The notes below the pieces were generated by a model, which was given only the letters and a program-made list of their open reading frames with translations, had not been told where the DNA came from and did not search any database. This document shows positions 5,700 through 26,955 of a stretch of DNA of 32,000 nt, one piece after another. Within the stretch, counting starts at the first letter, position 1. Every line of letters begins with the position of its first letter. Source of the DNA: Actinokineospora alba (GTDB taxonomy: Bacteria; Actinomycetota; Actinomycetes; Mycobacteriales; Pseudonocardiaceae); contig NZ_SNXU01000001.1 in NCBI RefSeq assembly GCF_004362515.1, forward strand, positions 3,757,633-3,789,632, read 5' to 3'. The translations under genes were made by a program, and so were the position numbers.

Positions 5700-6881
5700 T
5701 TAACTGATCACTGACCGCGACCGCAGTGCGTCGACCTTCGAGGCCGGGTAGCCGAGCCAGTCGAGGACCGCGTCGGTGTGTTGTCCCAGCGTCGGGACGG
5801 GTGCGGGGTCCCAGGTCCAGGTGTCGGCGTCGACTGGCGGGCGAAGCATGGGCACCGAGCCGCCCGGTACCGGGACGGTCGACCAGCGGTCGCGGGCGAC
5901 CAGCTGCGGGTGCGATGTCAGTTCGGTCACACCCCGTGTCCGGGCGGCCGGGACGTCGGCGGCGTCGAGCGCGGCGAGCAGGGTGTCGGCGTCGACGGCG
6001 TCGAACGACGGCTGCAGTTCGGCGTGCAGATCGGCCCGGTGCGCGACCCGGTCGGACACCGTCCGGTACCGGGGGTGGTCGGCCAGCTCGGGCCGCCCGA
6101 TGACCGACGCGCACAGCCGCCGCCACTGCCCGTCGTTCTGCACGGCCAGGTGGACCGCGCCGCCGTCCCCGCAGGCGAACGGCCCGTACGGGGCGATGGT
6201 CGGGTGGTGCGCGCCGTGCCTGCCGGGCGACGAGCCGGTGCCGTGCGCGTACAGCGCGGGCTGGTGCATCCACTCGGCGAGCGCCTCCATCAGCGTCAGC
6301 CGCAGCGTCGCCCCCTCACCGGTCCGCCCCCGTCGCACCAGCGCGGCCAGCACTGCGGCGTGCAGCTGGACGCCCGCGGCGATGTCGGCCACGGAGATCC
6401 CGGCCCGCGCCATCGACGGCCCGTCGCCGGTCGTCGCGACCAGCCCGGTCTCGGACTGGATGAGCGCGTCGAACGCCTTGCGCTCGCCGTACGGCCCGCC
6501 CTCGCCGTAGGACGACAGCTCGGCGGCGATCAACCCGGGATGGCGCGCGCGAACGGTATCCACGTCGAGCCCGAGGCGGCGGGCGGCGCCGGGGGAGAGG
6601 TTGCACATCACCACGTCGGCGCGCGAGAGCAGCTCCTCGACGATCGCCAGCCCATCGGCCTGTTTGAGGTCGACCGCCACCGACTCCTTGCCGACGTTGG
6701 TCCACGCGAAGTAGCTCGACACGTCGCCGCACGAGCTGTCGTAGTCGCGGGCGAAGTCGCCGGACCCCGGCCGCTCGATCTTGATCACCCGGGCGCCCAG
6801 GTCGGCCAGCAGCCGGGTCGCGTAGGGCACGGCCACCGCCTGCTCCAGGCTGATCACGACCATCCCGTCGAGCGGCTTCAC
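5700..6881 (-). CDS. Family III (CaiB/BaiF) CoA-transferase
   Basis: ORF 5700..7112. The N-terminus after V78 reads [42 protein letters not shown], a typical family III signature. GTG 6881 overlaps the fdhD stop (GTGA). The 77 residues upstream in the track ORF are G/R/A-rich and overlap fdhD. Confidence 0.85.
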
Positions 6882-7699
6882 CCGATCCGCCCGACGCCCG
6901 CGTACACGTTCATGGCCGAGTCGCGCAGGAACCCGATCAGCGTCATCCCCTGCTCCTCGGCCAGGTCGGCCGCCAGCGACGACGGCGCCGACACGGCCGC
7001 GAGCACCGGCACCCCGGCCATCGCCGCCTTCTGTACCAGCTCGAACGACGTCCGCCCGGACACCATCAGCACCATCCCGCGCAGCGGCACCCGGTCGGCC
7101 AGCAGGGCCCACCCGAGCACCTTGTCGACGGCGTTGTGCCTGCCCACGTCCTCGCGGACCACCAGCGCCTCCCCGGACGCGGTGAACAGCCCCGCCGCGT
7201 GCAGCCCGCCGGTGCTCTCGAAGACCTTCTGCTGCTCCCGAAGCTGTCCCGGCAGCGTGTGCAGGACATCGGCGGCGACCGTCACGTCGTCCTCGGCCGG
7301 CGAGAACCGCGTCCGCAGCCGCACCGCGTCGAGCGCGGCCTTGCCGCAGACCCCGCAGGACGAAGTCGTGTAGAAGTTCCGCTCCACCCCGACCTCGGGC
7401 GCGGGCACCCCGTCGGCCAAGGCGACGTCGAGGACGTTGTAGGTGTTGCGCCCGTCCGCGTCGGCCCCGTCGCAGTACCGCGCGACGGAGACGTCCTCGC
7501 GGCCGCCGATCACGCCCTCGGTGAGCAGGAAGCCGTGCGCCAGCTCCACATCGTGTCCCGGCGTGCGCATCGTGACCGCCAGCGCCCGCCCGCCGACCCG
7601 AAGCTCCAGCGGCTCCTCCGCGGCCAGCGCGTCCGGCCGCGTGCGCCGCCCGTCGGCGCTCAGCCGCACCACAGACCTGCGCACCGTGACTCGTCCCAT
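6878..7699 (-). CDS. fdhD: Formate dehydrogenase accessory sulfurtransferase FdhD
   Basis: Diagnostic motifs SSCGVCGK and GRHNAVDK, with a length of 273 aa. Confidence 0.93.
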
Positions 7700-7773: not shown

Positions 7774-9081
7774 TCACAGCCGCTGCCAGAGCGCCGGGAC
7801 GTTGGGCGGTTCCCACCCAGGCTGGGACGTGTGTCCCTGCCAGCACTTGTAGCTCGCCCCGCCGTAGGTGACCTGGGCGCCCGCCGCGTACGCGACGTGG
7901 GGCGCCCACGTGCCGCCCGGTGGGACGGTGGTGGTGGTCGGCGAGGTCGTGCCGGTCGGCGGGGTGGTGGTGCTGGTCGGCGGGGTGCCGGTCACGGTCA
8001 GCCGCAGGCCGTAGACGCTGAGGATCTCGTTGACCGGCTGGAAGTAGATCGTCCCGCCGGAGGTGCAGTTGCCCGAACCGCCGGACGTGACGCCCTGGGC
8101 CTGGTCGCCGGTGAGCCAGGAGCCACCGGAGTCGCCCGGTTCGGCGCAGGCGTTGGTCCTGGTCAGGCCGGTGATCGTGCCTTCGGGGTAGGTGACGGAG
8201 GCGTTCTTCTGCTGGATGGTGCCGCAGCGCCAGCCGGTGGTGGAGCCCGAGCGGCACACCGACGCGCCGACCGGGGCCTCGGTGGAGCCCGCGACCGGGA
8301 CCGTGCCCGGGTAGCGGTTGACCAGCGGCCGCGGGGTGTTGCCCGCCGCCGCCCGCACCCAGGCGTAGTCGTTGCCGGGGAAGCTCGACCCGACGACCGT
8401 CCCGCTGGGGTTGGAGGTGGCGGTGCCCGCGCGCCCGCAGTGGCCCGCGGTGACGAAGCCGCCTTCGACGGCGAAGCCGATCGAGCAGCGGCCGCTGCCG
8501 AAGGTGTAGGCGTTGCCGCCGATGATGTCGATCATCGGCTTGGGCGACTCCGTGGACGCCTCGACCCGGACCGCATCGACACCGTTCGCACCCGCCCACG
8601 CTTTCGCCGCGTCCTGGCTGCCTTGCTTGGCCAGGACGACGACGGAGTTGGTGGTGACGTCGACGTACCAGCCCGGCACGCCCGCGGGCGCGGACTTCGC
8701 CGCTGTGTCGAGCCGGTCCTTGAGGGCGCCGAGCTGGGCTTCGCTGCGTGCGACGGTCTGCGGGATCGCGCCGAGGGCACGGACCTGGTCGGCCTTGGTC
8801 TGGTCGGTCACCGCGACGATGAAGCGGGTCGCGTCGCCGTTGAGCCAGGCGCCGCCGAAGGACGCGCCGAGCCGGGCCCGCAGGGCGGCCTCGGTCTGGG
8901 CGGCGACCTTCTCCCGGCCGAGGCGCTGCCGGGCTTGCTCCGGGGTGATGTGCAGGTCTCGGGCGAGTGCGGCCTCCATGGACGTGTCCGCCGCGGCGGA
9001 CGGTGTGCTGAGCGCGACGGCGGTGGTGAAGCCGGCCACGCTGAGTGCCGCCAACGCGGCGGCGGTGATCTTTCGGTTCAT
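7774..9081 (-). CDS. Secreted S1E (streptogrisin / alpha-lytic) serine protease with C-terminal CBM5/12-like chitin-binding domain (streptogrisin C-like)
   Basis: ORF 7774..9783. The true start is ATG 9081 (MNRKITAAALAALSVAGFTTAVALSTPSAAA, a signal peptide). A prodomain follows. Catalytic contexts are TAGHCG and GDSGGS. A T/P-rich linker leads to the C-terminal AQVTYGGASYKCWQGHTSQPGWEPPNVPALWQRL. GGAGAG lies upstream of the ATG. Confidence 0.9.
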   Translation of the reverse strand: MNRKITAAALAALSVAGFTTAVALSTPSAAADTSMEAALARDLHITPEQARQRLGREKVAAQTEAALRARLGASFGGAWLNGDATRFIVAVTDQTKADQVRALGAIPQTVARSEAQLGALKDRLDTAAKSAPAGVPGWYVDVTTNSVVVLAKQGSQDAAKAWAGANGVDAVRVEASTESPKPMIDIIGGNAYTFGSGRCSIGFAVEGGFVTAGHCGRAGTATSNPSGTVVGSSFPGNDYAWVRAAAGNTPRPLVNRYPGTVPVAGSTEAPVGASVCRSGSTTGWRCGTIQQKNASVTYPEGTITGLTRTNACAEPGDSGGSWLTGDQAQGVTSGGSGNCTSGGTIYFQPVNEILSVYGLRLTVTGTPPTSTTTPPTGTTSPTTTTVPPGGTWAPHVAYAAGAQVTYGGASYKCWQGHTSQPGWEPPNVPALWQRL

Positions 9082-9138
9082 CCGCTCTCCAAGGCAGGGT
9101 GAGGTGGGACGCTCCGAGCTAAGCCCTCCACCGCCATA

Positions 9139-9154
9139 ATTGGTACATACCAAT
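9139..9154. promoter_or_regulatory. AT-rich operator-like palindrome ATTGGTA-ca-TACCAAT in the divergent protease/oxidoreductase promoter region
   Basis: 7+7 bp inverted repeat, followed by a half-site copy tGGTCATACC (9156-9165). It overlaps a CATAAT -10-like hexamer (9135-9140). It fits the GntR-type GT-Nx-AC pattern. The region is unusually AT-rich for this genome. Confidence 0.45.
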
Positions 9155-9180
9155 CTGGTCATACCGTTAAAGTCCGAAGG

Positions 9181-10704
9181 GTGAACAGGGACAGCTACGA
9201 CGTCGTCGTTGTCGGCGGTGGGCACAACGCGCTGGTCGCGGCGGCCTACCTGGCCAAAGCCGGGCGCTCGGTGGTGGTGCTGGAACGCCTGGGCCACACC
9301 GGTGGCGCCGCGGTGAGCGCGAGCCCGTTCCCCGGGGTGTGGCTCTCGCGCTACTCGTACCTGGTGAGCCTGCTGCCGGACCGGATCGTGGCGGACTTGG
9401 GTCTGCGGCTGGATCTGCGCTCCCGTGCGGTGTCCTCGTACACCCCGACCGTCCGCGACGGCCGCGCCACCGGCCTGCTGGTCGAGCGCGATCCCGGACG
9501 GGTGACCGCGGCGTCGTTCCGCGCGCTGACCGGCTCGGACGCCGAATTCGGGCGCTGGCAGGAGTTCTACGGCGACCTCGCCCGGGTGGCCCGCGCGCTT
9601 GCGCCGACAATGCTCGACCCGCTCCCATCCGCGGCGGCGGCCCGCGACCTGGTAGTCGGGGCGGCAGGGGAGAAGGTCTGGCGGCAGATTTTCGAACGCC
9701 CGCTGGGGGAGGCGATCGAGGAGACCTTCACCGACGACCTGGTGCGCGGCGTCGTCGCCACCGACGCCCTCATCGGCACGCACACGTCGCTCGGGTCACC
9801 GGACCTGTTGGCCAACCGGTGTTTCCTCTACCACCTGATCGGCAACGCGACGGGGGAGTGGCGGGTTCCGGTCGGCGGCATGGGTGCGGTCACCGGAGAA
9901 CTCCTGCGCGTGGCGCGGGAAGCGGGCGCCGAGATCGTGACCGGCGCTGAGGTGACGAGGGTGGACGCGGACGGCAAGTCAGCCGAAGTCACCGTTGGAG
10001 GCCGTGTGATCGGCGCGGGGTTTGTCCTGTCGGGGGTGGCGCCCGCCGTACTCGACCGGCTGCGGGGACGCCCGGCGGTATCGCCTGTCGGCGCCCAGTT
10101 GAAGATCAACCTGCTGTTGGACCGGCTGCCGCGGCTGCGTTCCGGCGTCGACCCGCGGCAGGCGTTCGCGGGGACGTTCCACCTTGATGAGTCCTATGTG
10201 GAGCTGGAGAGCGCCTACCAACTCAGCCTTTCCGGGAAGGTGCCGGAATTTCCGCCGGGCGAGATGTACTGCCACACGCTCACCGACCCGTCCATCCTGG
10301 CACCGGAACTCGCCGCGAGCGGGGCCCACACGCTGACGTTGTTCGGGCTGCAGTTGCCGCCCGCCCTGTTCGCCGACGACACCATGTGCGGCGAACTGGT
10401 CGATCGCTTCGCGGCGGGGTTGGACCGGCACCTACTCGACCCGATCGCCGACTGCGTGGCCCGTGACGCTGACGGAAATCCCTGCGTCGAGGCGCGAACA
10501 CCGCTCGACCTCGAGGAGGAACTGCGGATGCCGGGCGGAAACATCTTCCACGGGGATTTGTCGTGGCCGTTCGCCGACGAAGGGGGCTGGGGCGTGGAGA
10601 CCGATGTGCCGAACCTGTTCGTGTGCGGCAGCGGTGCTCGGCGTGGTGGCGGGGTGAGCGGGATTGGCGGTCACAACGCGGCGATGGCGGTGCTCGGGGG
10701 TTGA
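9181..10704 (+). CDS. FAD/NAD(P)-dependent oxidoreductase, phytoene desaturase (CrtI)-like family
   Basis: N-terminal Rossmann dinucleotide motif YDVVVVGGGHNALVAAAYLAKAG..VVVLE. Length is 507 aa, with a C-terminal GG.SG.GG flavoprotein motif. GTG start. Confidence 0.8.
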   Translation: MNRDSYDVVVVGGGHNALVAAAYLAKAGRSVVVLERLGHTGGAAVSASPFPGVWLSRYSYLVSLLPDRIVADLGLRLDLRSRAVSSYTPTVRDGRATGLLVERDPGRVTAASFRALTGSDAEFGRWQEFYGDLARVARALAPTMLDPLPSAAAARDLVVGAAGEKVWRQIFERPLGEAIEETFTDDLVRGVVATDALIGTHTSLGSPDLLANRCFLYHLIGNATGEWRVPVGGMGAVTGELLRVAREAGAEIVTGAEVTRVDADGKSAEVTVGGRVIGAGFVLSGVAPAVLDRLRGRPAVSPVGAQLKINLLLDRLPRLRSGVDPRQAFAGTFHLDESYVELESAYQLSLSGKVPEFPPGEMYCHTLTDPSILAPELAASGAHTLTLFGLQLPPALFADDTMCGELVDRFAAGLDRHLLDPIADCVARDADGNPCVEARTPLDLEEELRMPGGNIFHGDLSWPFADEGGWGVETDVPNLFVCGSGARRGGGVSGIGGHNAAMAVLGG

Positions 10705-14030: not shown

Positions 14031-14102
14031 GCGCCCATCCTCTGCCCCGCGGGGTAGGGATGCCATACGGTCGGAGCGCAAGTCACGCGAGGAGGCGAAC
14101 GG

Positions 14103-14279
14103 ATGCCCACAGCCGACGACCTGGCCACCGCCCTGAGCCGCGCCCGGGAGGCGTTCGAGGCGACCACCCGTGGCGGTGGCGCCGCCTGCGGGTCCGCTGC
14201 CGACGCCTACGCCGGGTTGCGGTCGGCGCTGCTCGCCGAACTCGACGTCTGCCTCGCGGTCCTGGACGGCGACGAATGA
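14103..14279 (+). CDS. 58-aa helix-turn-helix-hairpin protein (mini WXG100-like?), not in the supplied ORF track
   Basis: ATG 14103 lies 7 nt after a strong SD, GAGGAGG (14089-14095). Translation: MPTADDLATALSRAREAFEATTRGGGAACGSAADAYAGLRSALLAELDVCLAVLDGDE. Third codon positions are almost all G/C. The stop TGA 14277-14279 overlaps the next ATG (ATGA). The R-rich N-terminus of track ORF 14060..15661 is the out-of-frame reading of this gene. Confidence 0.6.
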   Translation: MPTADDLATALSRAREAFEATTRGGGAACGSAADAYAGLRSALLAELDVCLAVLDGDE

Positions 14280-15661
14280 GCGGGCCGGTGCAGCTCACGT
14301 CGCTGGTACGCAACCTCAACGACCTCGGCGCGATGCTCAACCCCGTCAAGCTCGTGACGGTCGTGGCGAGCGTGGTCAACGAGATCAAGGAACCCCCGCC
14401 CGGCGACCCGGACGCCCTGGACGTCCTGGCAGCCGCTTACCGGGTCGCAGGCGCCACACTGACCCCGCTGGGGCCCCAGGTGGCCGCGCTGGGCGCTGAG
14501 CCGCTCCCCGCGACCGGCCGTGTCCTCGACCGGGTGGCCGCGACCATGACCGCCACCGGCGACACCCTCGCCGAGCTCGCCACGTCCGTCCGTGAACACC
14601 AGCGCAGGCACGCCGAGCTCCACCAGGCCCTCGCCGCCGCCGCGCACGACGCCACCCACGTCGGCTCCGTGCCGATGCCGGACCCGGTCGGGATCGCCAA
14701 GCTCGTCGGCGTCGTCGGCGACCTGATCAGCGGGTGCGTGGCCGTCTACACCGACGCCCTGACCGCCGCCGACCGCGCCGCGGGCAGGCTCACCGACCTG
14801 CGCGGCGCCGCCCGAGCCGCCGCGGCGGTCGACGGCGGGCTGTCCCCGAAGGACGCGGTCGCGCTCGCCGACATCGGGCTTGAGTCCGCCCGCTACGACC
14901 CCGGCCTGTTCGGGCTGACCCAGCTCGCCCGGCTGGGCGCGGCGAAGTCGGCGGAGGTGGCGGAGCTGCTGGCCTCCGCGTCCTCCGACGCGGAGCGCGC
15001 GTGGCTGTTCAAGGCGGTCGGCGCGGGCCATGGCGTCGAGGTCCTGCGCGGGTTCGCTGAGGCCATCCGCGGCCGGGACGAGACCTGGCTGCGGTCGCAC
15101 CTGTCGCTGGTCGACCGGGGCGACGAGGCCGCGCAGAGCCGGATGGGCGTCGCCGTGCGCCAGTACGAGGCCACGACCTGCGGCACCACGGTCCTCATCG
15201 TCGCCCGCGCGGAACACGACCCGGTCTACGCCCTGACCCTCACCCGCGACGACTTCCAACCGGCTTTCGCCGCCGAGCGCGCGGTGGTCCACAACGAGAC
15301 CAACGTCGTCTACCCGCAGGCCGTGGGCACCTCACCCAAGGGCGTCGCCGCCTACCTGACCCGACACCTCGGCACCCGGTACGACTGGCGGCTGGTCGAC
15401 GACACCGACCGCCGCGAGATCTCCCGCACCCTGCGTGAGGTGATGGCCGCGGTCGACCAAGGGCACCCGGTGCCGCTGCTGGTCGGCGGGATCGTCCCGC
15501 GCCACTACGTCCTGGTCGTCGGGCACGAGCGCGGTGTCCTGCTGGTCTTCGAGCCCACCGCGGGCCGCACCGTCGCGGTCCCGGAACAGGCGTTCCTCGA
15601 CGGCGACCTCAAATCCGCCCTCGGCTTCGACCACGTCCAGTCCGCGATCCTGCCGAGCTAG
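14276..15661 (+). CDS. 461-aa protein: N-terminal T7SS-substrate-like helical domain fused to C-terminal peptidase C39-like (Cys/His) domain
   Basis: Start at ATG 14276 (M73 of ORF 14060..15661). The N-terminal GDPDALDVLAAAYRVAGATL parallels GDADQIAAYAQTWANVAKE of the RHS toxin N-domain in this window. In the C-terminus, QYEATTCGTT has Gln six residues before Cys-Gly, as in C39 peptidases. PRHYVLVVGHERGVLLVFEPTAG follows the HYVV...DP.G pattern, with Glu in place of Asp. Confidence 0.7.
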   Translation: MSGPVQLTSLVRNLNDLGAMLNPVKLVTVVASVVNEIKEPPPGDPDALDVLAAAYRVAGATLTPLGPQVAALGAEPLPATGRVLDRVAATMTATGDTLAELATSVREHQRRHAELHQALAAAAHDATHVGSVPMPDPVGIAKLVGVVGDLISGCVAVYTDALTAADRAAGRLTDLRGAARAAAAVDGGLSPKDAVALADIGLESARYDPGLFGLTQLARLGAAKSAEVAELLASASSDAERAWLFKAVGAGHGVEVLRGFAEAIRGRDETWLRSHLSLVDRGDEAAQSRMGVAVRQYEATTCGTTVLIVARAEHDPVYALTLTRDDFQPAFAAERAVVHNETNVVYPQAVGTSPKGVAAYLTRHLGTRYDWRLVDDTDRREISRTLREVMAAVDQGHPVPLLVGGIVPRHYVLVVGHERGVLLVFEPTAGRTVAVPEQAFLDGDLKSALGFDHVQSAILPS

Positions 15662-16692
15662 CTCGGGCAGCCGCTCTCAGCGGGCAGCGGAGCGGTGGGG
15701 TCGAAGTACGTGTCGCGGTCGCGGCGGGGCACCCGGTGGATCTTGTCGCCGTCGCGGAACGCCGGGGCGAGGAAGCCCTTCTTGTACTCCACGCACGAGA
15801 TCGAATAGCCGTAGCCGCCGACGCCGCCGTACCAGAGGCCCTGGCTGCCCGCGGTCCACCGGCCACCGGAGCGCAGCACATAGTCGACCTCGGCGCGGAC
15901 CACGACGACGCTGTCCATCGGGTCGTTGGTCTTGGGGCCCTCGAAGGCGTAGGCGAACACGTAGTTGGTGTGCACCACCAGCTCACCCGGCCCACCGGCC
16001 TCGGTCCACATCCGGCCGTTGACCTTCGGCTCGACCGGCAGCAACGGGCTGCCCTTCGACACCAGGCTCACCAACGCCTGGGCCTGTGGCTCGTTGCCGG
16101 TGCCGAAAAGCGGCGCCAACTGCTTGCGCGCGTCCGGCGCGAGCAGCGCCAGGTACCGGGACGGGTCGTGCTGGACGAGCAACTGGGGGTCGAGCCTGCT
16201 CGCCACGAGGGCGTCGCGAACCAGTGCGGTGGCCGACGCGACCTGCTCCTTGGTGAACTCGCCGATCTGCATCGGCGGCGGCACGACGATCCCCGCGGCC
16301 CCGTCGACCCAACCCGAGGCGGGGGTGTGGTCGAACGGCCGGTTGGAGTCGTTGGTGAGGCGGTCGGAGATGACCGGCGGGGCCGCGGTCCCCGGCTCCT
16401 CGGTCTTGGCGAGCACCTTGTCGAACATGCCGACGCGGACCATCAGCATGAGCACGGCGACGATCGCCACGAGCACCATCGAGGTGACGAGCCAGCGCTC
16501 CACCTTGCGGCGGCGGGTGGCCCGCACCATCGCACGCACGTCGGCCCGCGCCGACGCCCGCACACGGTCGCGCCACTCGGCGTCTCGCAACGCCGCGTGA
16601 TCGCCGAACTCACGTTGGTCCACCGGCCCCCCAAGGGCGCTCCAGAACCGTTCCCGGCCTGGTTCGACTGACGACTTCCTCGTGCTCACCAC
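15658..16692 (-). CDS. Single-pass membrane-anchored protein with extracytoplasmic domain, unknown family (paralog 1)
   Basis: A basic cytoplasmic tail is followed by the TM segment WLVTSMVLVAIVAVLMLMV and then a ~260-aa domain. It shares motifs with the adjacent gene: DGAAGIVVPP, LLPV.PKV.GRMW.E.GG.G.L.V.T, and C-terminal C...FDP....S.CP. The GTG start is uncertain (no SD). Confidence 0.6.
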   Translation of the reverse strand: MVSTRKSSVEPGRERFWSALGGPVDQREFGDHAALRDAEWRDRVRASARADVRAMVRATRRRKVERWLVTSMVLVAIVAVLMLMVRVGMFDKVLAKTEEPGTAAPPVISDRLTNDSNRPFDHTPASGWVDGAAGIVVPPPMQIGEFTKEQVASATALVRDALVASRLDPQLLVQHDPSRYLALLAPDARKQLAPLFGTGNEPQAQALVSLVSKGSPLLPVEPKVNGRMWTEAGGPGELVVHTNYVFAYAFEGPKTNDPMDSVVVVRAEVDYVLRSGGRWTAGSQGLWYGGVGGYGYSISCVEYKKGFLAPAFRDGDKIHRVPRRDRDTYFDPTAPLPAESGCPS

Positions 16693-16778: not shown

Positions 16779-17534
16779 TCATCGAGGGCAGGACGACCCG
16801 GATCCGATAGGCCGATCGGGGTCGAAGAGCGCGTCCGGAAGGCCCCCTGCACCCGTCACGGCGTCGACGCCGCCACTCTGGTGGCCGCACTCGGCGGGGT
16901 AACCCTGGGTCTCGTTGAGCCAGACGCCCCGGTCGGCCTCGGGCCTGCCCTCGCCCACGACGGTGAGGTCCATGTCCAGCCGGGCGACCTGGACCCGCGG
17001 GCCATCGTCTGTGTGCAGCGGGTAGACGACCACGAACCGGGTCTTGACCAGCAGCTTTCCCGTGCCACCCGACTCGGCCCACATCCGGCCGCGCACCTTC
17101 GGCGGCACCGGCAGCAGGGTCGTGTCGGGCCCGAGCCGCACGACGAACCGGTCGACCCGCTGGGGGTCGGCCAGGACCGCGCGCAGGCTCTCCTGGTCAC
17201 CCTCGGCGAACAGCCGCAGGTAGGGCTCGTAGTCCACGCCCATGATCACCGCGGGTTCCAGCATCGCCGCGGCCACCACGTCGCGGGCGCGGGCGTAGGC
17301 GTCGGCGATCGCCTCGGTCGAGTGGGTGCCGATCGCCTCGAACGGGGGGACCACGATCCCGGCGTCGCCGTCGGCCCAGTCCTGGGCCGGAGTCCCGACG
17401 AAGGGCCGCGCGGGGTCGGCGGCCACGGTCTCGCGCCGGGCGCCGTCGCCGAACCAGCCCGCCAGGTTCGTCAGGATGAACATGAAGACCATGGCGCCGG
17501 CGAGCACCACCGCGCCGACCGGAACCCTCCGCAT
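16779..17534 (-). CDS. Membrane-anchored protein, paralog 2 of 15658..16692
   Basis: N-terminal TM or signal anchor MRRVPVGAVVLAGAMVFMFILTNLAGW. It has the same conserved blocks as paralog 1 (DGDAGIVVPP, LLPVPPKVRGRMWAESGGTGKLLVKT, two C-terminal Cys). Confidence 0.6.
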   Translation of the reverse strand: MRRVPVGAVVLAGAMVFMFILTNLAGWFGDGARRETVAADPARPFVGTPAQDWADGDAGIVVPPFEAIGTHSTEAIADAYARARDVVAAAMLEPAVIMGVDYEPYLRLFAEGDQESLRAVLADPQRVDRFVVRLGPDTTLLPVPPKVRGRMWAESGGTGKLLVKTRFVVVYPLHTDDGPRVQVARLDMDLTVVGEGRPEADRGVWLNETQGYPAECGHQSGGVDAVTGAGGLPDALFDPDRPIGSGSSCPR

Positions 17535-20302: not shown

Positions 20303-20398
20303 GATAGGGACACCCAACTACACGAAACCGCCCCCGCGGTCGCCGTCGAGATCGGTACTGTCGATCGCACCGGACGTCGATCTTGTGGGGAGCGGACC

Positions 20399-20920
20399 TT
20401 GACCGAGCCAGTCTTCGGCGTCGACGCGGCAACCACCAACGCGGGCCTCGACCAGTGGGCCGCCGACATCCAAGCCAAGGCCGAACGCTATTCGGCCATG
20501 GAGCGCGAGGTCACCGCGGTCACCGCCACCGAGTCGTCCAGCGACGGCTCGATCCGGGTCACCGTCGACTCCGCGGGCGCGATCAAGGATCTCCAGTTCA
20601 CCGAGGACCTCAAGCGCCTGCCCGCCACCCGGATGGCCGAGCTGGTGCTCACCACCATGCGCAAAGCCCAGGCCCGCATCTCCGACCAGGTCGCCGAGAT
20701 CGTCCAGACCCGCGTCGGCGACGACCCGGAGACCACCGAGGCGGTCGTCGGCGCCTACCGTGCGCGGTTCCCCGATCCGGAGCCCGAGCAGGACGAGGCC
20801 GACGGGACCATGCGACTGGGCCAAGTCGACGAAGATGACCAACCCGGGGAACGGCCCCGCCCGCCGCGGCGTCCCAGGCCCGAGGACGACGACGATTTCG
20901 GTGGCTCGATCTTCCACTGA
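20399..20920 (+). CDS. YbaB/EbfC-family protein with acidic/Pro-rich C-terminal tail
   Basis: The core SSDGSIRVTVDSAGAIKDLQFTEDLKRLPATRMAELVLTTMRKAQARI matches the YbaB/EbfC pattern (G.V.V.V...G....L.i). TTG start lies 6 nt after GGGGAG. It is the first gene of the toxin operon. Confidence 0.7.
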   Translation: MTEPVFGVDAATTNAGLDQWAADIQAKAERYSAMEREVTAVTATESSSDGSIRVTVDSAGAIKDLQFTEDLKRLPATRMAELVLTTMRKAQARISDQVAEIVQTRVGDDPETTEAVVGAYRARFPDPEPEQDEADGTMRLGQVDEDDQPGERPRPPRRPRPEDDDDFGGSIFH

Positions 20921-20934
20921 TTCCTGGGGGTGTC

Positions 20935-21243
20935 ATGCCGGACGACAAGTACGACGTCGTCATCGACGAGCTGCGCGCGCACGCGGCCCGACTCGATGGC
21001 TTGTCCGCGCGGCTCAACACGGCCGCCAACGCGGGCAATGAGGTGACCATGGGCACCGAGGCGTACGGGAAGATCTGCGCGTTCTTCGTGCCCATCGTCC
21101 AGTCCGTCTCCATGCCGGGGCTGGACGCGCTGGCGAGCACGGCGGGCCGGATGGCCGAGACGGCGCAAGGCGTGAAGGCCACGGCCACCGCCTACGAGGA
21201 GACCGAGCAGGGCAACACCAGCGCGCTCGGTGGTCCCCGATGA
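20935..21243 (+). CDS. EspC/DUF2580-like small helical protein (type VII secretion-associated family)
   Basis: 102 aa. VVIDELRAHAARLDGLSARL......AYGKICAFFVP......L.....GRMAETAQGVKATATAYEETEQ follows the pattern of ESX secretion-associated EspC-like proteins. The stop overlaps the ATG of the RHS gene (ATGA at 21240-21243). Confidence 0.65.
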   Translation: MPDDKYDVVIDELRAHAARLDGLSARLNTAANAGNEVTMGTEAYGKICAFFVPIVQSVSMPGLDALASTAGRMAETAQGVKATATAYEETEQGNTSALGGPR

Positions 21244-24200
21244 CGAATCCCCTGATCGCGCAACGACAGGACTCGACCACCGCCATCAGCGGCATCGGCA
21301 TCGCCGAGTCCGCCGTCGACCTGCACAACGGCATCGAGTCGAAGTCGTGGGTGGAAGCAGGCATCGGCGGTGTCGGCACCGGCCTGGAGATGCTGTCGCT
21401 GGCTCTCGACCCGGTCGGCACCCTGCTCAGCTACGCCGTGTCATGGCTGATGGAGCACGTCAAACCGCTGTCGGACGCCCTCGACTGGCTCTGCGGCGAC
21501 GCCGACCAGATCGCCGCCTACGCCCAGACGTGGGCGAATGTGGCCAAGGAGACCGGAAAGGTCGCCGAGGACTTCGGCAACGAGGTCAAGAACGGCACCG
21601 CGGGCTGGGCAGGCGAGGCCGCCGACGCCTACCGCGCCTCCGCCGCCCTGCAGAACGAACAGGTCTCCGCGGCCGCGACCTGCGCGGACTCCATCGGCTC
21701 CACAGTCCAGGTCGTCGGCGTCCTGGTCGGCGCGGTCCGCGAGATCGTCCGCGACCTCGTCGCCGAGTGCGTCGCCACCCTGATCGCCCGCATCCCGCAG
21801 TGGATAGCCGAAATCGGCGGCACCCTCGGCATCGCCACCCCCCACGTCGTCGCGTCGGCCACCGCGCTGATCGCCAAGTGGGTCAACCGGATCAAGGACT
21901 TCATCAAGGCCCTCACCAAGTCCCTGGACTCCCTTTCGGGCCTGCTGAAGAAACTCGACGAGATCTGGGCGGGCATCAAGAAGTCCCTCCCCGGCACCCG
22001 CAGCCCTGACGTCACCCCCACCCGAGCATCGGACGGGGTTACCTCCCCGAACGCCTCGACCACGACGCCATCCGGCTCGACCTCGCCCAGCAGCGCCAGT
22101 CCCGACGGCTCTTCGACCAGCCCGTCCAGCACCACAACCCCAAGCGGCACAACGTCACCGGACACGTCGACCACCTCGCCGAGCAGCACCTCGCCGAGCG
22201 GCACGACCTCCCCGAACGGTTCATCGAGCACCAGCCCCAACGGCTCGCGCAGCCAGGTGGGCGACGACCCCAAGGCCAGCGCCCGGCCCGAGCCGAACCG
22301 GAAGACCTGCGGCGACCCGATCGACGTCGCGTCCGGCGAGATGCTGCTCACCCAGGACGATGTCCGCCTGGGCGGCGCTCTTCCGCTGGTGCTGTCGCGA
22401 ACGCACCTGTCGACCTACCGGATCGGCACCCGGTTCGGCGCGTCCTGGGCGTCGACTCTTGATCAGCGTCTTGAGGTCGACGACGAGGGCGTCTGTTTCG
22501 TCACCGAAGACGGCATGGTGCTGGTCTACCCGCATCCAGGCGACTCGCCGGTGTTGCCTGCCGAGGGGCCCCGGTGGCCGTTGCTGCGCTCCGCGGACGG
22601 CGGATACTCGGTCACCGACCCGGAGTCCGGCCACACCAGGATGTTCGCCGCGGCGACCGGCCCCATCCGGCCGATCATTTCGATCAATGACCGCAACGGA
22701 CACCGCGTCGACTTCGATCGCGGTGCGGATGGCGTGGCCACCGCGGTGCGTCACTCCGGTGGCTACCGAGTCGACGTGCGCAGCGAAGCCGGGCTGGTCA
22801 CGGCACTGGTGCTGGCCGGGGCCGACGAGATCACCCTGATCCGGTACGGCTACGACGCGGCGCGCAGGCTCACCGAGGTCATCAACTCCTCTGGAGCCGC
22901 ACTTCGGTTCGACTACGACTCCGCGGGCCGCATCACGCGGTGGCAGGACCGAAACGAGATGTGGTATCGCTACGGCTACGACGAGCGCGGCCGGTGCGTG
23001 CTCAACGAGGGCGCGGACGGTTACCTCTCCGGCGCTTTCGAGTACCGCGAACGGCTGACCGTGTACACGGATTCCCTCGGCCACCGCACGGAATTCCACC
23101 TGAACGACGCCTACCAGGTAGTCCGCGAGGTGGACCCGCTCGGTGGCGTGACACTGTCCGATTGGGACCGGCACGACCGGCTGCTGGCACGGACCGACCC
23201 GCTCGGTCGAGTGACGCGCTACCGCTACGACGACGACGGCAACCTCGTCGGCATCGTCCGCCCCGACGGTACGGAGTCTTCCGCGACCTACAACGCGCTG
23301 GGGTTGCCGCTGACGGTGACCGAGGTCGACGGCGCCGTGTGGCGACGCACCTACGACGACTGCGGCAACCTGCTCTCCATCACCGACCCGATGGGCGCGG
23401 TGACGACGTTCGATCTCGACGCTCATGGCAATGTCACCGCGATCACCGACCCCCTCGGCGCCGTGCGTCGGGTGGAGTCCGACCAAGCGGGTCTTCCCGT
23501 CGTGGTCACCGATCCGCTCGGTGCGAGTACCCGATACAGCCGTGACCGGTTCGGGCGCATCGCCGCCATGACAGACCCGCTCGGTGGCAGCACCCGACTG
23601 GGCTGGACGATCGAGGGCAAGCTCATCTCCCGCACCCAGGCGGACGGCGCGGTCGAGCGCTGGCGGTACGACGGCGAGGGCAATCTTGTCGAGCACATCG
23701 ATCCCGCCGGGAACACCACGAGGACGGCGTACACGGGGTTCGATCAGCCCGCTTGGCAGGTCGGCGCCGACGGAGCGCGCTTGGAGTTTGGCTACGACAC
23801 GAACCTGAGGCTCACGTCGGTCACCAACCCGCAGGGTCTCGTCTGGCGCTACACCTATGACGCTGTCGGCAATCTTGCCGAGGAAACCGACTTCAACGGC
23901 AGGCGGCTGACGTACTCCTACGATGCCGCGGGCCAGCTGGTGGGCCGCGCGAACGGCTTGGGCGAGCTCGTCTCCTTCGACCGTGACGTGCTCGGACGCT
24001 TGCGCGCCAAGCATTCCGGGCCCGCGACGACGTCCTACGAACACGACGCGCTCGGGCGGATGACCAGGACGACAAGTCCGGACGCCGATGTCCACTTCGA
24101 GCGGGATGTCCTGGGCCGGGTCCTCGCGGAGACCACCAATGGTCGAACTGTTCGGTCGGTGTACGACCCGCGGGGCAACCGAATCCGCCGCGAGACCCCC

Positions 24201-25757
24201 AGCGGCGCGGTCAGCGAATGGGAGTACGACGCGGCCGGCAACGCCGTGGCACTGTTCACCGGCGGCAGGCGGATGTCGTTCGGCTACGATGCGGCAGGTC
24301 GGGAGGTCCACCGCACGCTCGACTCCGGTACGGCGCTCGCCCAGGATTGGGATGCCAACCACCGCCTGCGGTCGCAGACACTCACCGCACGTGGCATGAA
24401 CGTCCAGCGACGGGACTACCAGTACCGGCTGGACGGGTGCCTGACCGCGGTCGACGACCGGATCGCGGGCGCACGCCGCTACGACCTGGACCCGGCGGGT
24501 CGTGTCACCGCGGTGCACGGCGCCGGGTGGACCGAGCGCTACGCCTACGACGCCGCGGGCAATCTCACCCAGGCGGCGTGGCCCGGCGAGCATCCCGCTG
24601 AGGGAACACGGGAGTACACGGGAACCAGGGTCCGCCGGTCGGGCACCGTCCACTTCGAACACGATGTGCAGGGGCGGGTCCTGCTTCGGCGGCAGCGTGC
24701 TCTTTCCGGCCAGATCCGGGCGTGGACCTACACCTGGGACGCTGAAGACCGCTTGGTCGCCGTCACCACCCCGGACGGCGCCCGGTGGCGCTATCGCTAC
24801 GACGGTCTGGGAAGGCGCACCGCCAAGCAGCGACTGGCCTCGACCGGCACCGAGGTGGTCGAGCAGGTCGACTTCGCCTGGGACGGTCTCGTCCTCGCCG
24901 AGCAGACCACGTCCGGAGCGGTTCTCGACGGACCCGACCCGGCGGAACGCACCACCACGTGGGAGTTCGAGCCGGGCACGTTCCGGCCGGTCGCGCAGCG
25001 GGAACGGGTTCGCACCTCACCGCAGACGTGGATCGACGCGCAGTTCTACGCCCTGATAACCGACCTGATCGGCACGCCGACGGAGATGGTCGACTCGGAC
25101 GGCGCACTGGCGTGGCGTTCGCAGACCACGCTGTGGGGTGCCGCCTTGGCTGGGCTGGGTGGGGGTCCGTACTGCCCGCTGCGGTTTCCCGGTCAATACC
25201 ACGACGTGGAAACCGGGCTCAACTACAACGTCCACCGCTACTACGACCCGGCCACCGGGCACTACGGTTCCGCCGACCCGCTTGGCCTGCTGGCGGGACC
25301 GAACCCGTTCGCCTACGTCGGCAACCCGACGCTTCGGTCGGACCCGTTGGGCCTCACGGATTGCGCGCGGGCCAAGAAGCTGGCGAACAAGACCAGCGAG
25401 CGCGCGCGGAACGGCAGCGTCCGGGAGGCGCCGAACTATCATGGGCGGCTTTCGCGGGAACGCGAACTCGAGATCCTGTCCAACCCGGACGGCGTCTACC
25501 ACTCGACGGGTTCGGGCGGCCGGTTCATCTACCGCCAGGGCGACGACATCGTGATCACCGAAGGTCCTGGAAGCAAGGCGGGCCAGTTGGTGACCAGTTA
25601 CGGGCCATCCGGTCCGCGCGGTGACAGCGGTGCGGCGATCTTCGGCGGGTCCTCGGCTGATCCTGGGATGCCTATCACCCACGACATGATCGTCAACGGG
25701 ACGATCCCGACACCGGATGGCGGGACCGTTCCGCCCGCCATCCAGATCCTTCCCTAA
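21240..25757 (+). CDS. Polymorphic toxin: N-terminal WXG100-like (T7SS-type) domain, S/T/P linker, DUF6531-like domain, RHS/YD-repeat shell, and variable C-terminal domain
   Basis: 1505 aa. Residues 1-250 are helical, with LDWLCGDADQIAAYAQTWANVA and the W-x-G motif GWAGEAADAY (nt 21606-21614). CGDPIDVASGEML marks the RHS N-terminal plug. More than 20 YD repeats are present (e.g. RYGYDAARRLT, YRYDDDGNLV, YSYDAAGQLV). The core end reads YYDPATGHYGSADPLGLLAGPNPFAYVGNPTLRSDPLGL. Confidence 0.92.
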   Translation: MTNPLIAQRQDSTTAISGIGIAESAVDLHNGIESKSWVEAGIGGVGTGLEMLSLALDPVGTLLSYAVSWLMEHVKPLSDALDWLCGDADQIAAYAQTWANVAKETGKVAEDFGNEVKNGTAGWAGEAADAYRASAALQNEQVSAAATCADSIGSTVQVVGVLVGAVREIVRDLVAECVATLIARIPQWIAEIGGTLGIATPHVVASATALIAKWVNRIKDFIKALTKSLDSLSGLLKKLDEIWAGIKKSLPGTRSPDVTPTRASDGVTSPNASTTTPSGSTSPSSASPDGSSTSPSSTTTPSGTTSPDTSTTSPSSTSPSGTTSPNGSSSTSPNGSRSQVGDDPKASARPEPNRKTCGDPIDVASGEMLLTQDDVRLGGALPLVLSRTHLSTYRIGTRFGASWASTLDQRLEVDDEGVCFVTEDGMVLVYPHPGDSPVLPAEGPRWPLLRSADGGYSVTDPESGHTRMFAAATGPIRPIISINDRNGHRVDFDRGADGVATAVRHSGGYRVDVRSEAGLVTALVLAGADEITLIRYGYDAARRLTEVINSSGAALRFDYDSAGRITRWQDRNEMWYRYGYDERGRCVLNEGADGYLSGAFEYRERLTVYTDSLGHRTEFHLNDAYQVVREVDPLGGVTLSDWDRHDRLLARTDPLGRVTRYRYDDDGNLVGIVRPDGTESSATYNALGLPLTVTEVDGAVWRRTYDDCGNLLSITDPMGAVTTFDLDAHGNVTAITDPLGAVRRVESDQAGLPVVVTDPLGASTRYSRDRFGRIAAMTDPLGGSTRLGWTIEGKLISRTQADGAVERWRYDGEGNLVEHIDPAGNTTRTAYTGFDQPAWQVGADGARLEFGYDTNLRLTSVTNPQGLVWRYTYDAVGNLAEETDFNGRRLTYSYDAAGQLVGRANGLGELVSFDRDVLGRLRAKHSGPATTSYEHDALGRMTRTTSPDADVHFERDVLGRVLAETTNGRTVRSVYDPRGNRIRRETPSGAVSEWEYDAAGNAVALFTGGRRMSFGYDAAGREVHRTLDSGTALAQDWDANHRLRSQTLTARGMNVQRRDYQYRLDGCLTAVDDRIAGARRYDLDPAGRVTAVHGAGWTERYAYDAAGNLTQAAWPGEHPAEGTREYTGTRVRRSGTVHFEHDVQGRVLLRRQRALSGQIRAWTYTWDAEDRLVAVTTPDGARWRYRYDGLGRRTAKQRLASTGTEVVEQVDFAWDGLVLAEQTTSGAVLDGPDPAERTTTWEFEPGTFRPVAQRERVRTSPQTWIDAQFYALITDLIGTPTEMVDSDGALAWRSQTTLWGAALAGLGGGPYCPLRFPGQYHDVETGLNYNVHRYYDPATGHYGSADPLGLLAGPNPFAYVGNPTLRSDPLGLTDCARAKKLANKTSERARNGSVREAPNYHGRLSRERELEILSNPDGVYHSTGSGGRFIYRQGDDIVITEGPGSKAGQLVTSYGPSGPRGDSGAAIFGGSSADPGMPITHDMIVNGTIPTPDGGTVPPAIQILP
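21990..22274 (+). repeat. Low-complexity Ser/Thr/Pro-rich linker coding region inside the RHS gene
   Basis: Residues ~251-345 read TSPNASTTTPSGSTSPSSASPDGSSTSPSSTTTPSGTTSPDTSTTSPSSTSPSGTTSPNGSSSTSPNGS, with reiterated (S/T)(S/T)SP units. Confidence 0.85.
25356..25754 (+). other. 133-aa C-terminal domain after the RHS DPLGL boundary (presumed toxin module, family not recognised)
   Basis: It begins right after DPLGL (25341-25355): TDCARAKKLANKTSERARNGSVREAPNYHGRLSRERELEILSNPDGVYHSTGSGGRFIYRQGDDIVITEGPGSKAGQLVTSYGPSGPRGDSGAAIFGGSSADPGMPITHDMIVNGTIPTPDGGTVPPAIQILP. It has no HNH, HExxH, deaminase or obvious nuclease signature that I can recognise. Confidence 0.6.
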
Positions 25758-25770
25758 TAGGGTGGAGCCT

Positions 25771-26508
25771 GTGTCGGAATCCATCGGTCGGTTCGAAGTA
25801 CGCCCAGGTCGCGGCCTCGCGGTCACACCACGTCTGATCATCGGAAGCCGGTCGCTGATGGTGAGCCCGTGCCAGGACGGAGCGGCCCACGAGCGGCACG
25901 TGCTGGCCACTGTGGGCAGCGGCAACTGGTACCAGTCCGAGCATGACGAGCTGCGGTTCTCGCCGTCGGAGCGGGTGCTGGAGAGTGTCTGGCTGCACAT
26001 CCCCGAGGTCAACGCCGATCTCGCGGAGCCGCTGGCGCGGTGGCGGGCCCTACCGTCGACGCCGGGCACTCTCGGGTTGGTCGGATCGGACCCGTTCGAC
26101 CAGGTTCCAGCGACGACGCGCATGTTCGGTGCCGACGGGACACTCGTGTGCGCCTATGGGGCCATCGCGTCCGGGGCGGAGACTCGGCTTGAGGTCGCCG
26201 AAGGCTGCTCGGTGGTGGTCGGCGATGGTGACCTGGTTGGTTGGTTCATCGAGGATGCCGAGCGGTTCGTGGTGCGGTCGTGGGAGTTTCCGGGATCGGC
26301 GGTCGAGGACCGTGAGTTCCAAACACGCATGGCGGAGTTCTTCGACCTCGTCGCGGAACCGAACCTCGAGGCCCTGGAAGACGGCGAACCGGACGTGATC
26401 GAGCGCCTCTCCGTGTTGCGCGACGGGATCGATCTCGGCGGTGGGGTTCAGGCCAGGCGGGCCGCGCTGCGGGAAACGGTCGCCGAGTTGGTCGACTTCT
26501 TCGGATGA
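25771..26508 (+). CDS. Hypothetical protein, positional candidate for cognate immunity protein of the RHS toxin
   Basis: ORF 25717..26508. Start chosen at GTG 25771 just after GGTGGAG (25761-25767), 13 nt past the toxin stop. It encodes an acidic 245-aa cytoplasmic-looking protein with no recognisable motifs. Confidence 0.6.
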   Translation: MSESIGRFEVRPGRGLAVTPRLIIGSRSLMVSPCQDGAAHERHVLATVGSGNWYQSEHDELRFSPSERVLESVWLHIPEVNADLAEPLARWRALPSTPGTLGLVGSDPFDQVPATTRMFGADGTLVCAYGAIASGAETRLEVAEGCSVVVGDGDLVGWFIEDAERFVVRSWEFPGSAVEDREFQTRMAEFFDLVAEPNLEALEDGEPDVIERLSVLRDGIDLGGGVQARRAALRETVAELVDFFG

Positions 26509-26538
26509 CCACAAGGTCATCGATTCGAGAGGCAGGGG

Positions 26539-26955
26539 ATGGGCGACAGCGGACGTGCGGCCATCCTCCGCTCTGCCGGTTTCGAGGTCGTCGGCACCGT
26601 GGAGTCCGCGGGAGGCCTGCTTCCGGAGCAGGCCTGGCGCCGCGTCATCAATCTGGACGTGGTCCCCGTCGCCGAGGTCGACGACGATGACCTGGACCGC
26701 GTCGACGCCGAGTGGCGCGGGCTTGCCGACGAGAGCGGGCTGTTCGCGGACGACGGCTCGTTCCTCATCAGCCCGCCCGGTCCCGGCGCCATGCGGTTGC
26801 CCTGGGTGCGGGTCCGGTTGACGGCCGCGACAAAGCTGGCCGGGCAGCTCCACGCCAGTCCCGGTCAGCCCGAGTTCGTCACGGCGGCGTTGGACGGGCA
26901 CGTGGTGCTTGGCGTCACCAGCGAAGAGCATGGAGTGTGGCTGGTCCGGGGCTAG
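26539..26955 (+). CDS. Hypothetical 138-aa acidic protein (possible second or orphan immunity protein)
   Basis: ATG lies after GAGGCAGGGG, 30 nt downstream of the preceding gene on the same strand. No recognisable motifs. Its stop overlaps the convergent GNAT stop within GCTAGC. Confidence 0.55.
   Translation: MGDSGRAAILRSAGFEVVGTVESAGGLLPEQAWRRVINLDVVPVAEVDDDDLDRVDAEWRGLADESGLFADDGSFLISPPGPGAMRLPWVRVRLTAATKLAGQLHASPGQPEFVTAALDGHVVLGVTSEEHGVWLVRG

Follow-up and report, generated by a model that had tools for sequence, protein, structure and literature searches.

How might a soil actinomycete export a toxin of some 160 kDa from a locus that has no secretion genes beside it? The question is raised by five genes on the + strand, here called g1 to g5, of Actinokineospora alba (NCBI RefSeq assembly GCF_004362515.1, contig NZ_SNXU01000001.1), which lie in a 32,000-nucleotide stretch that was analysed as a whole and is referred to below as the window; positions are counted from its first letter. 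The large third gene, g3 (21240-25757; 1505 aa), encodes a helical WXG-type domain, an RHS cage and a C-terminal toxin domain, or tip. It is preceded by genes for a YbaB-fold protein (g1, 20399-20920; 173 aa, TTG start) and an EspC-like protein (g2, 20935-21243; 102 aa), and followed by two apparent immunity genes, g4 (25771-26508; 245 aa, GTG start) and g5 (26539-26955; 138 aa). Most likely, with a probability of about 0.72 in our estimate, these genes make up a polymorphic toxin cassette that is complete in itself and whose product is exported by a distant type VII secretion system (T7SS) of the ESX-4 type. The cassette is a typical and complete member of a large T7SS-type polymorphic toxin family, a kind of system that is already known; the class is common in actinomycete genomes and has barely been tested in the laboratory.

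All five open reading frames (ORFs) have the codon signature, rich in G and C at third positions, that is typical of real genes, and they are identical to the NCBI gene calls for the contig (GCA_900104505.1, A. alba). The start codons of g1, g2 and g5 are preceded by G-rich ribosome-binding sites. Read from the sequence, g1 and g2 are separated by 14 nt, g2 and g3 overlap by ATGA, g3 and g4 are separated by 13 nt, and g4 and g5 by 30 nt. A preliminary description, drawn up from the letters of this DNA alone, had given the same positions, tight packing and motifs, and every domain assignment that it made from the raw sequence was upheld by hidden Markov model (HMM) searches of the five proteins. 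Its view of the five genes as an operon is likewise supported.

The evidence for T7SS export begins with the N-terminus of the toxin. Residues 1-260 of g3 (21240-22019, + strand) are best read as a WXG100_2-type helical trafficking domain (PF25547): searched alone, this segment scores 27.1 bits against a gathering threshold (GA) of 27, and the full protein 22.7 bits. The score against WXG100 is 23.7 bits (cutoff 27.3), the PPE and T7SS_signal models are also weakly matched, the EspA_EspE model (PF18879; cutoff 27) is missed at 14.6 bits, and g3 gives no match to the LXG model (PF04740) at E<=10. The strings quoted for a WXG100-like N-domain in the preliminary description are present, and the domain itself scores at the cutoff. 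PF25547 matches are precomputed for close homologs, which NCBI names 'WXG100 family type VII secretion target', and a profile of N-domain homologs finds as its best PDB match the ESAT-6-like protein MAB_3112 (E=0.0035). The predicted structure is all-helical, at a low-confidence predicted local distance difference test score (pLDDT) of 58.8, and places W123-A-G125 within residues 120-125, where its sole interruption separates helix 88-119 from helix 126-194; the WxG motif is invariant in all 65 N-domains that belong to the gene triad described below. Foldseek matches this model to generic long-helix bundles, among them PPE15, PPE41 and EspB, none of them significantly, and model and search together are consistent with T7SS targeting without being evidence for it.

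The small protein encoded immediately upstream, described beforehand as EspC/DUF2580-like, is a full-length member of the EspC family (PF10824; 46 bits against a GA of 23.5, with residues 7-99 of 102 covered), and 47 of 57 g2 homologs match the same model. Its C-terminal motif, Y87-E-E-T-E91, conforms to YxxxE, and YxxxD/E is found in 33 of the 57 homologs, including all those from Pseudonocardiales. PE/PPE and Esx pairs use a bipartite arrangement of WxG and YxxxD/E (PMC13491425), which the WxG of g3 and the Y87xxxE91 of g2 would together reproduce; g2 is predicted to be a co-secreted partner that provides half of a bipartite T7SS signal. In Actinoplanes and related genera, g2 homologs lack the Tyr of YxxxD/E and read [TMVS]xxTD (e.g., positions 9645-9995 of locus L027 and 5885-6211 of locus L036), and most of them terminate in a conserved ELPL; this may be an alternative targeting motif.

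The first gene encodes the YbaB/EbfC-like protein that had been recognised upstream of the toxin (PF02575, 36.3 bits, GA 25.5). With 14.4 bits against a cutoff of 49.45, g1 does not reach the housekeeping YbaB equivalog TIGR00103, and by its sequence it is best classed as a divergent YbaB-fold paralog, not the housekeeping ortholog; it ends in a 60-residue tail that is acidic, proline-rich and disordered. The ESX-1 system has YbaB-fold proteins that are described or proposed as substrate chaperones: EspD and EspH bind their substrates and keep them stable, a role also proposed for EspL (PMC6109436, PMC6107294, PMC6319747). By analogy, g1 is predicted to be the cytosolic chaperone of the toxin's pre-secretion complex. 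The role of a YbaB homolog in such loci had been called unexplained, and the library that we searched indeed yielded no literature joining "polymorphic toxin" with "YbaB"; the Esp chaperones, and a Mycobacterium abscessus operon with the same gene order (discussed below), mean that it is not wholly so. If the prediction is right, genes of the g1 type are routinely mislabelled as nucleoid-associated proteins in annotation.

Evidence that these three genes form a unit comes from related loci, which number 483 in GTDB species genomes, mainly of Pseudonocardiales and Micromonosporales, and of which 79 were fetched for neighbourhood analysis. A g2-like gene is present in 69 of these and a g1-like gene in 65, the order is always g1, g2, toxin, and in 68 of the 69 loci that have g2 its stop lies -5 to +11 nt from the toxin start. 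Order and spacing are the same for toxins of ~400 aa and of ~1500 aa, and clustering of all neighbouring genes recovers the g1-like gene, the g2-like gene and the toxin as the only recurrent ones. Pairwise distances between N-domains correlate with those between g2 homologs (r=0.905) and between g1 homologs (r=0.865), and one Kibdelosporangium genome holds two paralogous triads that have diverged concordantly, which indicates that the helpers follow the toxin they accompany, not just the species. Together, the genes for the YbaB-like protein, the EspC-like protein and the WXG toxin are a conserved, co-evolving cassette with highly variable tips; the co-variation of helpers and WXG toxins, on which the preliminary description had staked its proposal, is clear. 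The N-domain family comprises 74 database proteins, mostly of ~230-455 aa, with NucA/NucB, ADP-ribosyltransferase or DUF4157 C-termini. A Tsukamurella record contains the triad, annotated as "YbaB/EbfC family nucleoid-associated protein", hypothetical and hypothetical; this seemingly chromosomal record was the one weak match in a plasmid collection, in which the cassette is not plasmid-borne.

Two departures from this layout were observed. WXG-RHS paralogs without a g1- or g2-like gene upstream occur in Amycolatopsis xylanica and Amycolatopsis sp. NPDC059657 (loci L033, L037, L068, L069 and L071), and since each of these genomes holds several WXG-RHS copies, their helpers may be supplied in trans. 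In Planosporangium mesophilum (L045, 792-1142 and 9648-10001), two WXG-toxin genes lie ~9 kb apart on the same strand, each with its own g2-like gene, and within the fetched sequence only the downstream toxin has a g1-like gene.

What the triad would export is an RHS toxin. The helical domain is separated from the RHS plug by a Ser/Thr/Pro-rich low-complexity linker of ~90 residues (about residues 253-345; 21996-22274, + strand), in which a short 15-nt tandem repeat occurs at 22172-22204. The cage itself occupies residues 358-1372 (22311-25355, + strand), ending in PFAYVGNPTLRSDPLGL; it is made up of a DUF6531 plug (residues 358-430, 76 bits), RHS/YD repeats (18 RHS_repeat and 12 YD_repeat_2x stretches, with PF03527 present) and an Rhs-associated core (TIGR03696; residues 1299-1372, 70.7 bits). 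DPLGL occurs twice, at residues 1346-1350 and 1368-1372, and the core ends in NPTLRSDPLGL at 1362-1372, so that HMM matches and motif positions agree with the plug, YD repeats and DPLGL core end previously read from the letters. RHS-length toxins are found in 27 of the 79 loci, all of them Pseudonocardiales, and most of the 28 that were aligned (the 27 sisters and the window's own) have a PxxYVxNPxxxxDPLGL boundary in common. Beyond it, the sister toxins carry unrelated tips of 100-157 residues; five of the ten tips scanned match Pfam, as Tox-HNH-EHHH, two deaminase families, ART-HYD1 and colicin DNase. At the DNA level, identity between the window and locus L001 stops at window position 25354. 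A Tc-type insecticidal toxin was ruled out, there being no TcA/TcB partners and the N-terminus being a WXG-type domain.

The tip of g3 (residues 1373-1505, 133 residues; 25356-25757, + strand) belongs to an undescribed family; neither it nor g4 nor g5 has a Pfam or NCBIfam match. The family has 141 representatives at 50% identity, in nearly all of which the domain is C-terminal, and it is joined to RHS, extracellular contractile injection system (eCIS)-core, PT-HINT and LXG N-termini; it occurs in Streptomyces, Catenulispora, Paenibacillus and Lysinibacillus. The window's own tip recurs in the Kibdelosporangium locus L024 at ~80% identity, judged by eye. His1401 is invariant in 51 longer family members, and Tyr1400, Thr1452, Tyr1454 and Ser1463 are nearly so; His1401 is a candidate catalytic residue. 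One match of the tip among PDB sequences, to the antibody chain 7kqy (E=9e-6), is an artefact of two duplicated 13.6-bit low-complexity matches.

Whether this domain is an RNase is the point on which an alternative survives best. BECR and BECR-like RNases are defined by an N-terminal helix and a four-strand beta-meander, with an extra C-terminal strand in the BECR-like case (bioRxiv 10.64898/2026.09.18.752725), and the AlphaFold2 model of the tip, a confident one (pLDDT 85.8), shows this layout, in which two helices accompany a meander of four strands and a further strand at the C-terminus. Among its best Foldseek matches, the toxin folds are limited to colicin E5 RNase (E=0.6) and RelE, neither of them significant, and the near-universal His and Tyr would be available for acid-base chemistry. 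On these predicted features, the odds that the tip is a BECR-like RNase are roughly even. That it is some other toxin acting in the cytoplasm, for example a nucleotide- or protein-modifying enzyme, has a chance not far from one in two: no structure or profile match of the tip reaches significance, and its most conserved motifs (NYHG, TSYGPSG, SGAAIFGG and DPGxPVTH) are glycine-rich loops, unlike a known RNase signature. The immunity protein g4, in which neither a signal peptide nor a membrane segment is evident, counts somewhat on the side of the RNase.

The preliminary description had treated g4 and g5 as two unknown ORFs of one kind, and here it needs correction. A g4-family gene lies directly downstream of the tip in all five tip loci that were compared, which span two phyla including Bacillota: the window, Kibdelosporangium (L024), Catenulispora (L084), Paenibacillus durus (L081) and a metagenome contig (L082). 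Matches in these loci have phmmer E-values of 9e-47 and 1e-17 and profile E-values of 4e-11 and 1e-9, the P. durus, metagenome and Catenulispora genes accounting for the two profile values and for the phmmer value of 1e-17. Because a gene of this family follows the tip from locus to locus, g4 is assigned as the cognate immunity protein of the g3 tip. Homologs of g5, by comparison, adjoin Tox-HNH-EHHH tips on their downstream side, in Actinokineospora sp. HUAS TT18 (L001) and in a Saccharopolyspora (L007); since such genes sit after HNH-EHHH tips, not the tip of the window, g5 is assigned as an orphan immunity gene of the type that follows HNH-EHHH nuclease tips. Translations of both g4 and g5 lack an evident signal peptide, as would suit a target in the cytoplasm. 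A 216-aa start-variant of g4 bears the UniRef name 'SUKH-4 immunity protein'; a Pfam hmmscan of five family members found no SUKH-4 domain, and the name was set aside.

Taken together, these features suggest how the cassette might work. The effector, g3, would pair through its N-terminal WXG100_2 helical hairpin with the EspC-like g2 to give a four-helix bundle, which would present a composite export signal, WxG from g3 and YxxxE from g2, in the manner of PE/PPE and EspA/EspC pairs. In the cytosol, the YbaB-fold g1 would stabilise this pre-secretion complex, as EspD, EspH or EspL would. The RHS cage would enclose the 133-residue C-terminal domain and release it by autoproteolysis after DPLGL, and the freed domain would kill a cell nearby, probably through metal-independent RNase action of the BECR-like kind. 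In the producer, g4 would bind and neutralise the tip, whilst g5 would guard against the HNH-EHHH tips of related strains.

Comparison with characterised systems places the cassette close to several of them. In M. abscessus, EatA, with TapA1, TapA2 and EatI, is an ESX-4-dependent antibacterial toxin with a pair of accessory proteins encoded upstream and an immunity protein encoded downstream, and its locus layout is reported across Actinomycetota (bioRxiv 10.64898/2026.03.26.714487). The two loci are alike in layout: in both, small accessory genes precede a toxin gene whose product starts with a helical targeting domain, an immunity gene follows, and secretion genes are unlinked. They differ in that EatA is a 57-kDa arabinanase acting in the periplasm and countered by a lipoprotein inhibitor, whereas here a 160-kDa RHS cage is combined with a tip predicted to act in the cytoplasm and with cytoplasmic immunity; moreover, the EatA study calls neither Tap protein YbaB-fold and makes no mention of RHS (bioRxiv 10.64898/2026.03.26.714487). 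The view that this toxin class is essentially uncharacterised experimentally is still fair for the RHS versions, although the ESX-4 dependence of EatA has now been shown. The same species provides the operon alluded to above: the SigM regulon of M. abscessus, which induces ESX-4 substrates, includes Mab_2773c (YbaB/EspL-like), Mab_2772c and Mab_2771c (PMC13491425), in the order YbaB-like protein, small protein, helical protein, as in g1-g2-g3.

The closest functional parallel to g3-g2-g1 is espA-espC-espD, by virtue of the chaperone role of YbaB-fold EspD, EspH and EspL in ESX-1. Both the EspA-EspC-EspD and the EspE-EspF-EspH sets, like the cassette, comprise a large helical substrate of WxG type, a small EspC-family partner and a YbaB-fold protein in a chaperone role. 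Their gene order differs, however, and the g3 N-domain misses the EspA_EspE model as noted; neither toxin nor RHS cargo is carried by the ESX-1 substrates, which serve virulence, whereas the cassette belongs to a monoderm actinomycete of soil in which the ESX-4 type is probably the only one present. For LXG toxins with Lap1 and Lap2 (T7SSb, Bacillota), too, the gene of a polymorphic toxin with a conserved helical N-domain follows those of two small partners and precedes an immunity gene, and Rhs-type versions of the LXG system are known in Listeria (PMC10327511); that system belongs to another secretion subtype, g3 lacks the LXG domain, and both Laps are helical hairpins, as against one YbaB-fold helper here. 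Type VI secretion system (T6SS) Rhs effectors (RhsP2, carriers of SRLase1) share the RHS cage that encapsulates a polymorphic tip, the DPLGL self-cleavage and the neighbouring immunity gene, but have a PAAR/prePAAR N-terminus, Eag chaperones and the T6SS spike where the cassette has a WXG100_2 domain and EspC-like and YbaB-like helpers. Finally, fusions of WXG and RHS in actinobacterial toxins were catalogued in 2012 by Zhang et al. (PMC3482391), and the cassette is exactly of that class, in which a WXG trafficking domain is joined through RHS repeats to a variable toxin at the C-terminus and an immunity gene is present. The passages of that catalogue that were searched do not link the class to a YbaB-like helper (PMC3482391), and the window's tip, g4 and g5 match no model in Pfam, the library that holds the catalogue's Ntox and Imm families.

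Against a chaperone role for g1 stands the possibility that it is a DNA-binding regulator of the cassette, a nucleoid protein of the YbaB/EbfC type, and that only g2 aids export. In favour of such a role, g1 lies closer by sequence to true YbaB than to the Esp proteins with solved structures: g1 and all 51 of its g1-like homologs match the YbaB DNA-binding family (PF02575), and a profile of the homologs finds E. coli YbaB (1pug, E=9e-6), H. influenzae YbaB and Rv3716c among PDB structures and no Esp structure. Its place as the first gene of the operon would also suit a regulator. We nevertheless think this unlikely, given the failure of g1 to reach the housekeeping equivalog, the co-evolution of g1 with the N-domain (also between paralogs in one genome), which suits protein-protein specificity better than operator binding, and the precedent of the YbaB-fold Esp proteins in substrate stabilisation.

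Less probable still, and in our view improbable, is that the cassette is no T7SS substrate but is released by lysis or another route, or acts inside the cell as a toxin-antitoxin or anti-phage module with the N-domain otherwise employed: the lack of linked secretion genes at the 79 loci, the marginal WXG100 evidence for the N-domain and the Amycolatopsis xylanica RHS paralogs without both helpers speak for it, but the three conserved genes all come from families associated with T7SS substrates, WxG and YxxxD/E are placed as a bipartite signal requires, the same N-domain bears classic interbacterial toxin tips, no signal peptide is evident in the g3 translation, and toxin loci unlinked to secretion genes are normal for T7SS (bioRxiv 10.64898/2026.03.26.714487). 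The absence of EccC, EccB and MycP genes from the 32 kb, pointed out in the preliminary description, is confirmed among the Pfam-matched genes of the window, yet it turns out to be the rule across related loci and no peculiarity of this one. No T7SS core genes (Ecc, MycP) were found within 10 kb of the 79 loci, where Pfam scans took 8 of 75 large neighbouring ORFs, all of them housekeeping; a Walker-A screen of neighbouring ORFs of at least 800 aa gave one candidate, which was not scanned against Pfam. ESX-4 clusters occur in both Pseudonocardiales and Micromonosporales (PMC4791881), and Rhs proteins are genetically linked to T7SS (PMC11217815, PMC10327511).

Export of a toxin by a distant ESX-4-type system is the reading that we prefer, and several points temper it. 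Secretion genes are linked to the cassette neither in the window nor in the neighbourhoods of its relatives, the N-domain combines a marginal HMM score with a low-confidence model and non-significant Foldseek matches, g1 resembles true YbaB more than the solved Esp proteins, and the RNase call comes from predicted topology, with a best relevant Foldseek match of E=0.6. To our knowledge, nobody has shown passage of a folded RHS cage of ~160 kDa through a T7SS. The most specific version of the proposal, in which the YbaB-fold and EspC-like pair targets the 160-kDa RHS toxin to an ESX-4-type T7SS and the tip founds a BECR-like RNase family with its own immunity family, is tentative and, all parts taken together, falls below even odds. 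Were it true, the cassette would be the first tractable pair of RHS toxin and T7SSa, and YbaB-fold Esp-type proteins would be general secretion chaperones well outside ESX-1 virulence.

Experimental proof of antibacterial toxins exported by an actinobacterial T7SS is very recent and confined to a single mycobacterial case. The A. alba cassette offers a minimal complete system (helper, helper, RHS toxin and immunity) in a non-pathogenic soil actinomycete, with which it could be asked whether an RHS cage is exported by T7SS and what YbaB-fold Esp-type proteins do. It also brings new families, namely an unannotated tip carried on RHS, contractile-injection-system, HINT and LXG proteins in two phyla, and the matching immunity family.

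The recent history of the locus can be read from sister species. Its flanks are core chromosome, with valS directly upstream and a GNAT gene and then an Opp-type ABC transporter downstream. By blastn, the A. xionganensis sequence runs collinear with the window as far as the valS stop (20302), with 92-94% identity, and again from 26552 onward, with 91.5%, and has the same valS...GNAT/opp context; the segment between (20303-26551), which contains g1-g4, is absent and is replaced by a 119-nt spacer (7892-8010 of locus L086). This spacer keeps a 25-nt remnant of the 3' end of g4, identical at 23 of 25 bases, just upstream of the g5 homolog, which is retained next to valS. On the simplest reading of these sequences, A. 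xionganensis lost g1-g4 by deletion and retained the orphan immunity gene, which makes it a natural control of toxin-minus, orphan-immunity-plus genotype. The closest relative of the cassette itself is found in Actinokineospora sp. HUAS TT18 (L001, 9162-14891), with an N-domain 90% identical. There it lies across the opp and methyltransferase block from the place it has in A. alba, with a Tox-HNH-EHHH tip and then the g5 homolog, showing that neither the position of the cassette nor its tip is fixed within the genus.

A possible route of regulation lies in the interval between valS and g1. A sigma-70 promoter and terminator scan of the operon was uninformative, but a candidate extracytoplasmic function (ECF)-sigma promoter of SigM-like type, GAAACCG-N14-CGTC, can be read at 20324-20347 (+ strand), one mismatch from GGAACCG, the -35 element of SigM (PMC13491425). 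Of 66 loci, 8 have the strict motif GGAAC[CT]-N14-18-CGTC upstream of the g1 homolog, whereas 0.58% of random segments of 170 nt contain it. Since these eight loci (L003, L005, L022-L024, L026, L032 and L047) come from only a few related clades, the promoter is a lead and not a finding.

The remaining genes of the window are tig-clpP1-clpP2-clpX, FdhD, a protease gene and a molybdopterin oxidoreductase gene, besides valS, the GNAT gene and the Opp-type transporter already mentioned. Between the molybdopterin oxidoreductase gene and valS lie three predicted ORFs without a Pfam match (14060-15661, + strand; 15658-16692 and 16779-17534, both - strand), which are kept in A. xionganensis; a fourth candidate without a family, at 5778-7373, overlaps a better-supported gene on the minus strand. 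An ORF of up to 669 aa at 7774-9783 (- strand), unrelated to the cassette, combines an alpha-lytic protease prodomain with a C-terminal CBM5/12 chitin-binding module.

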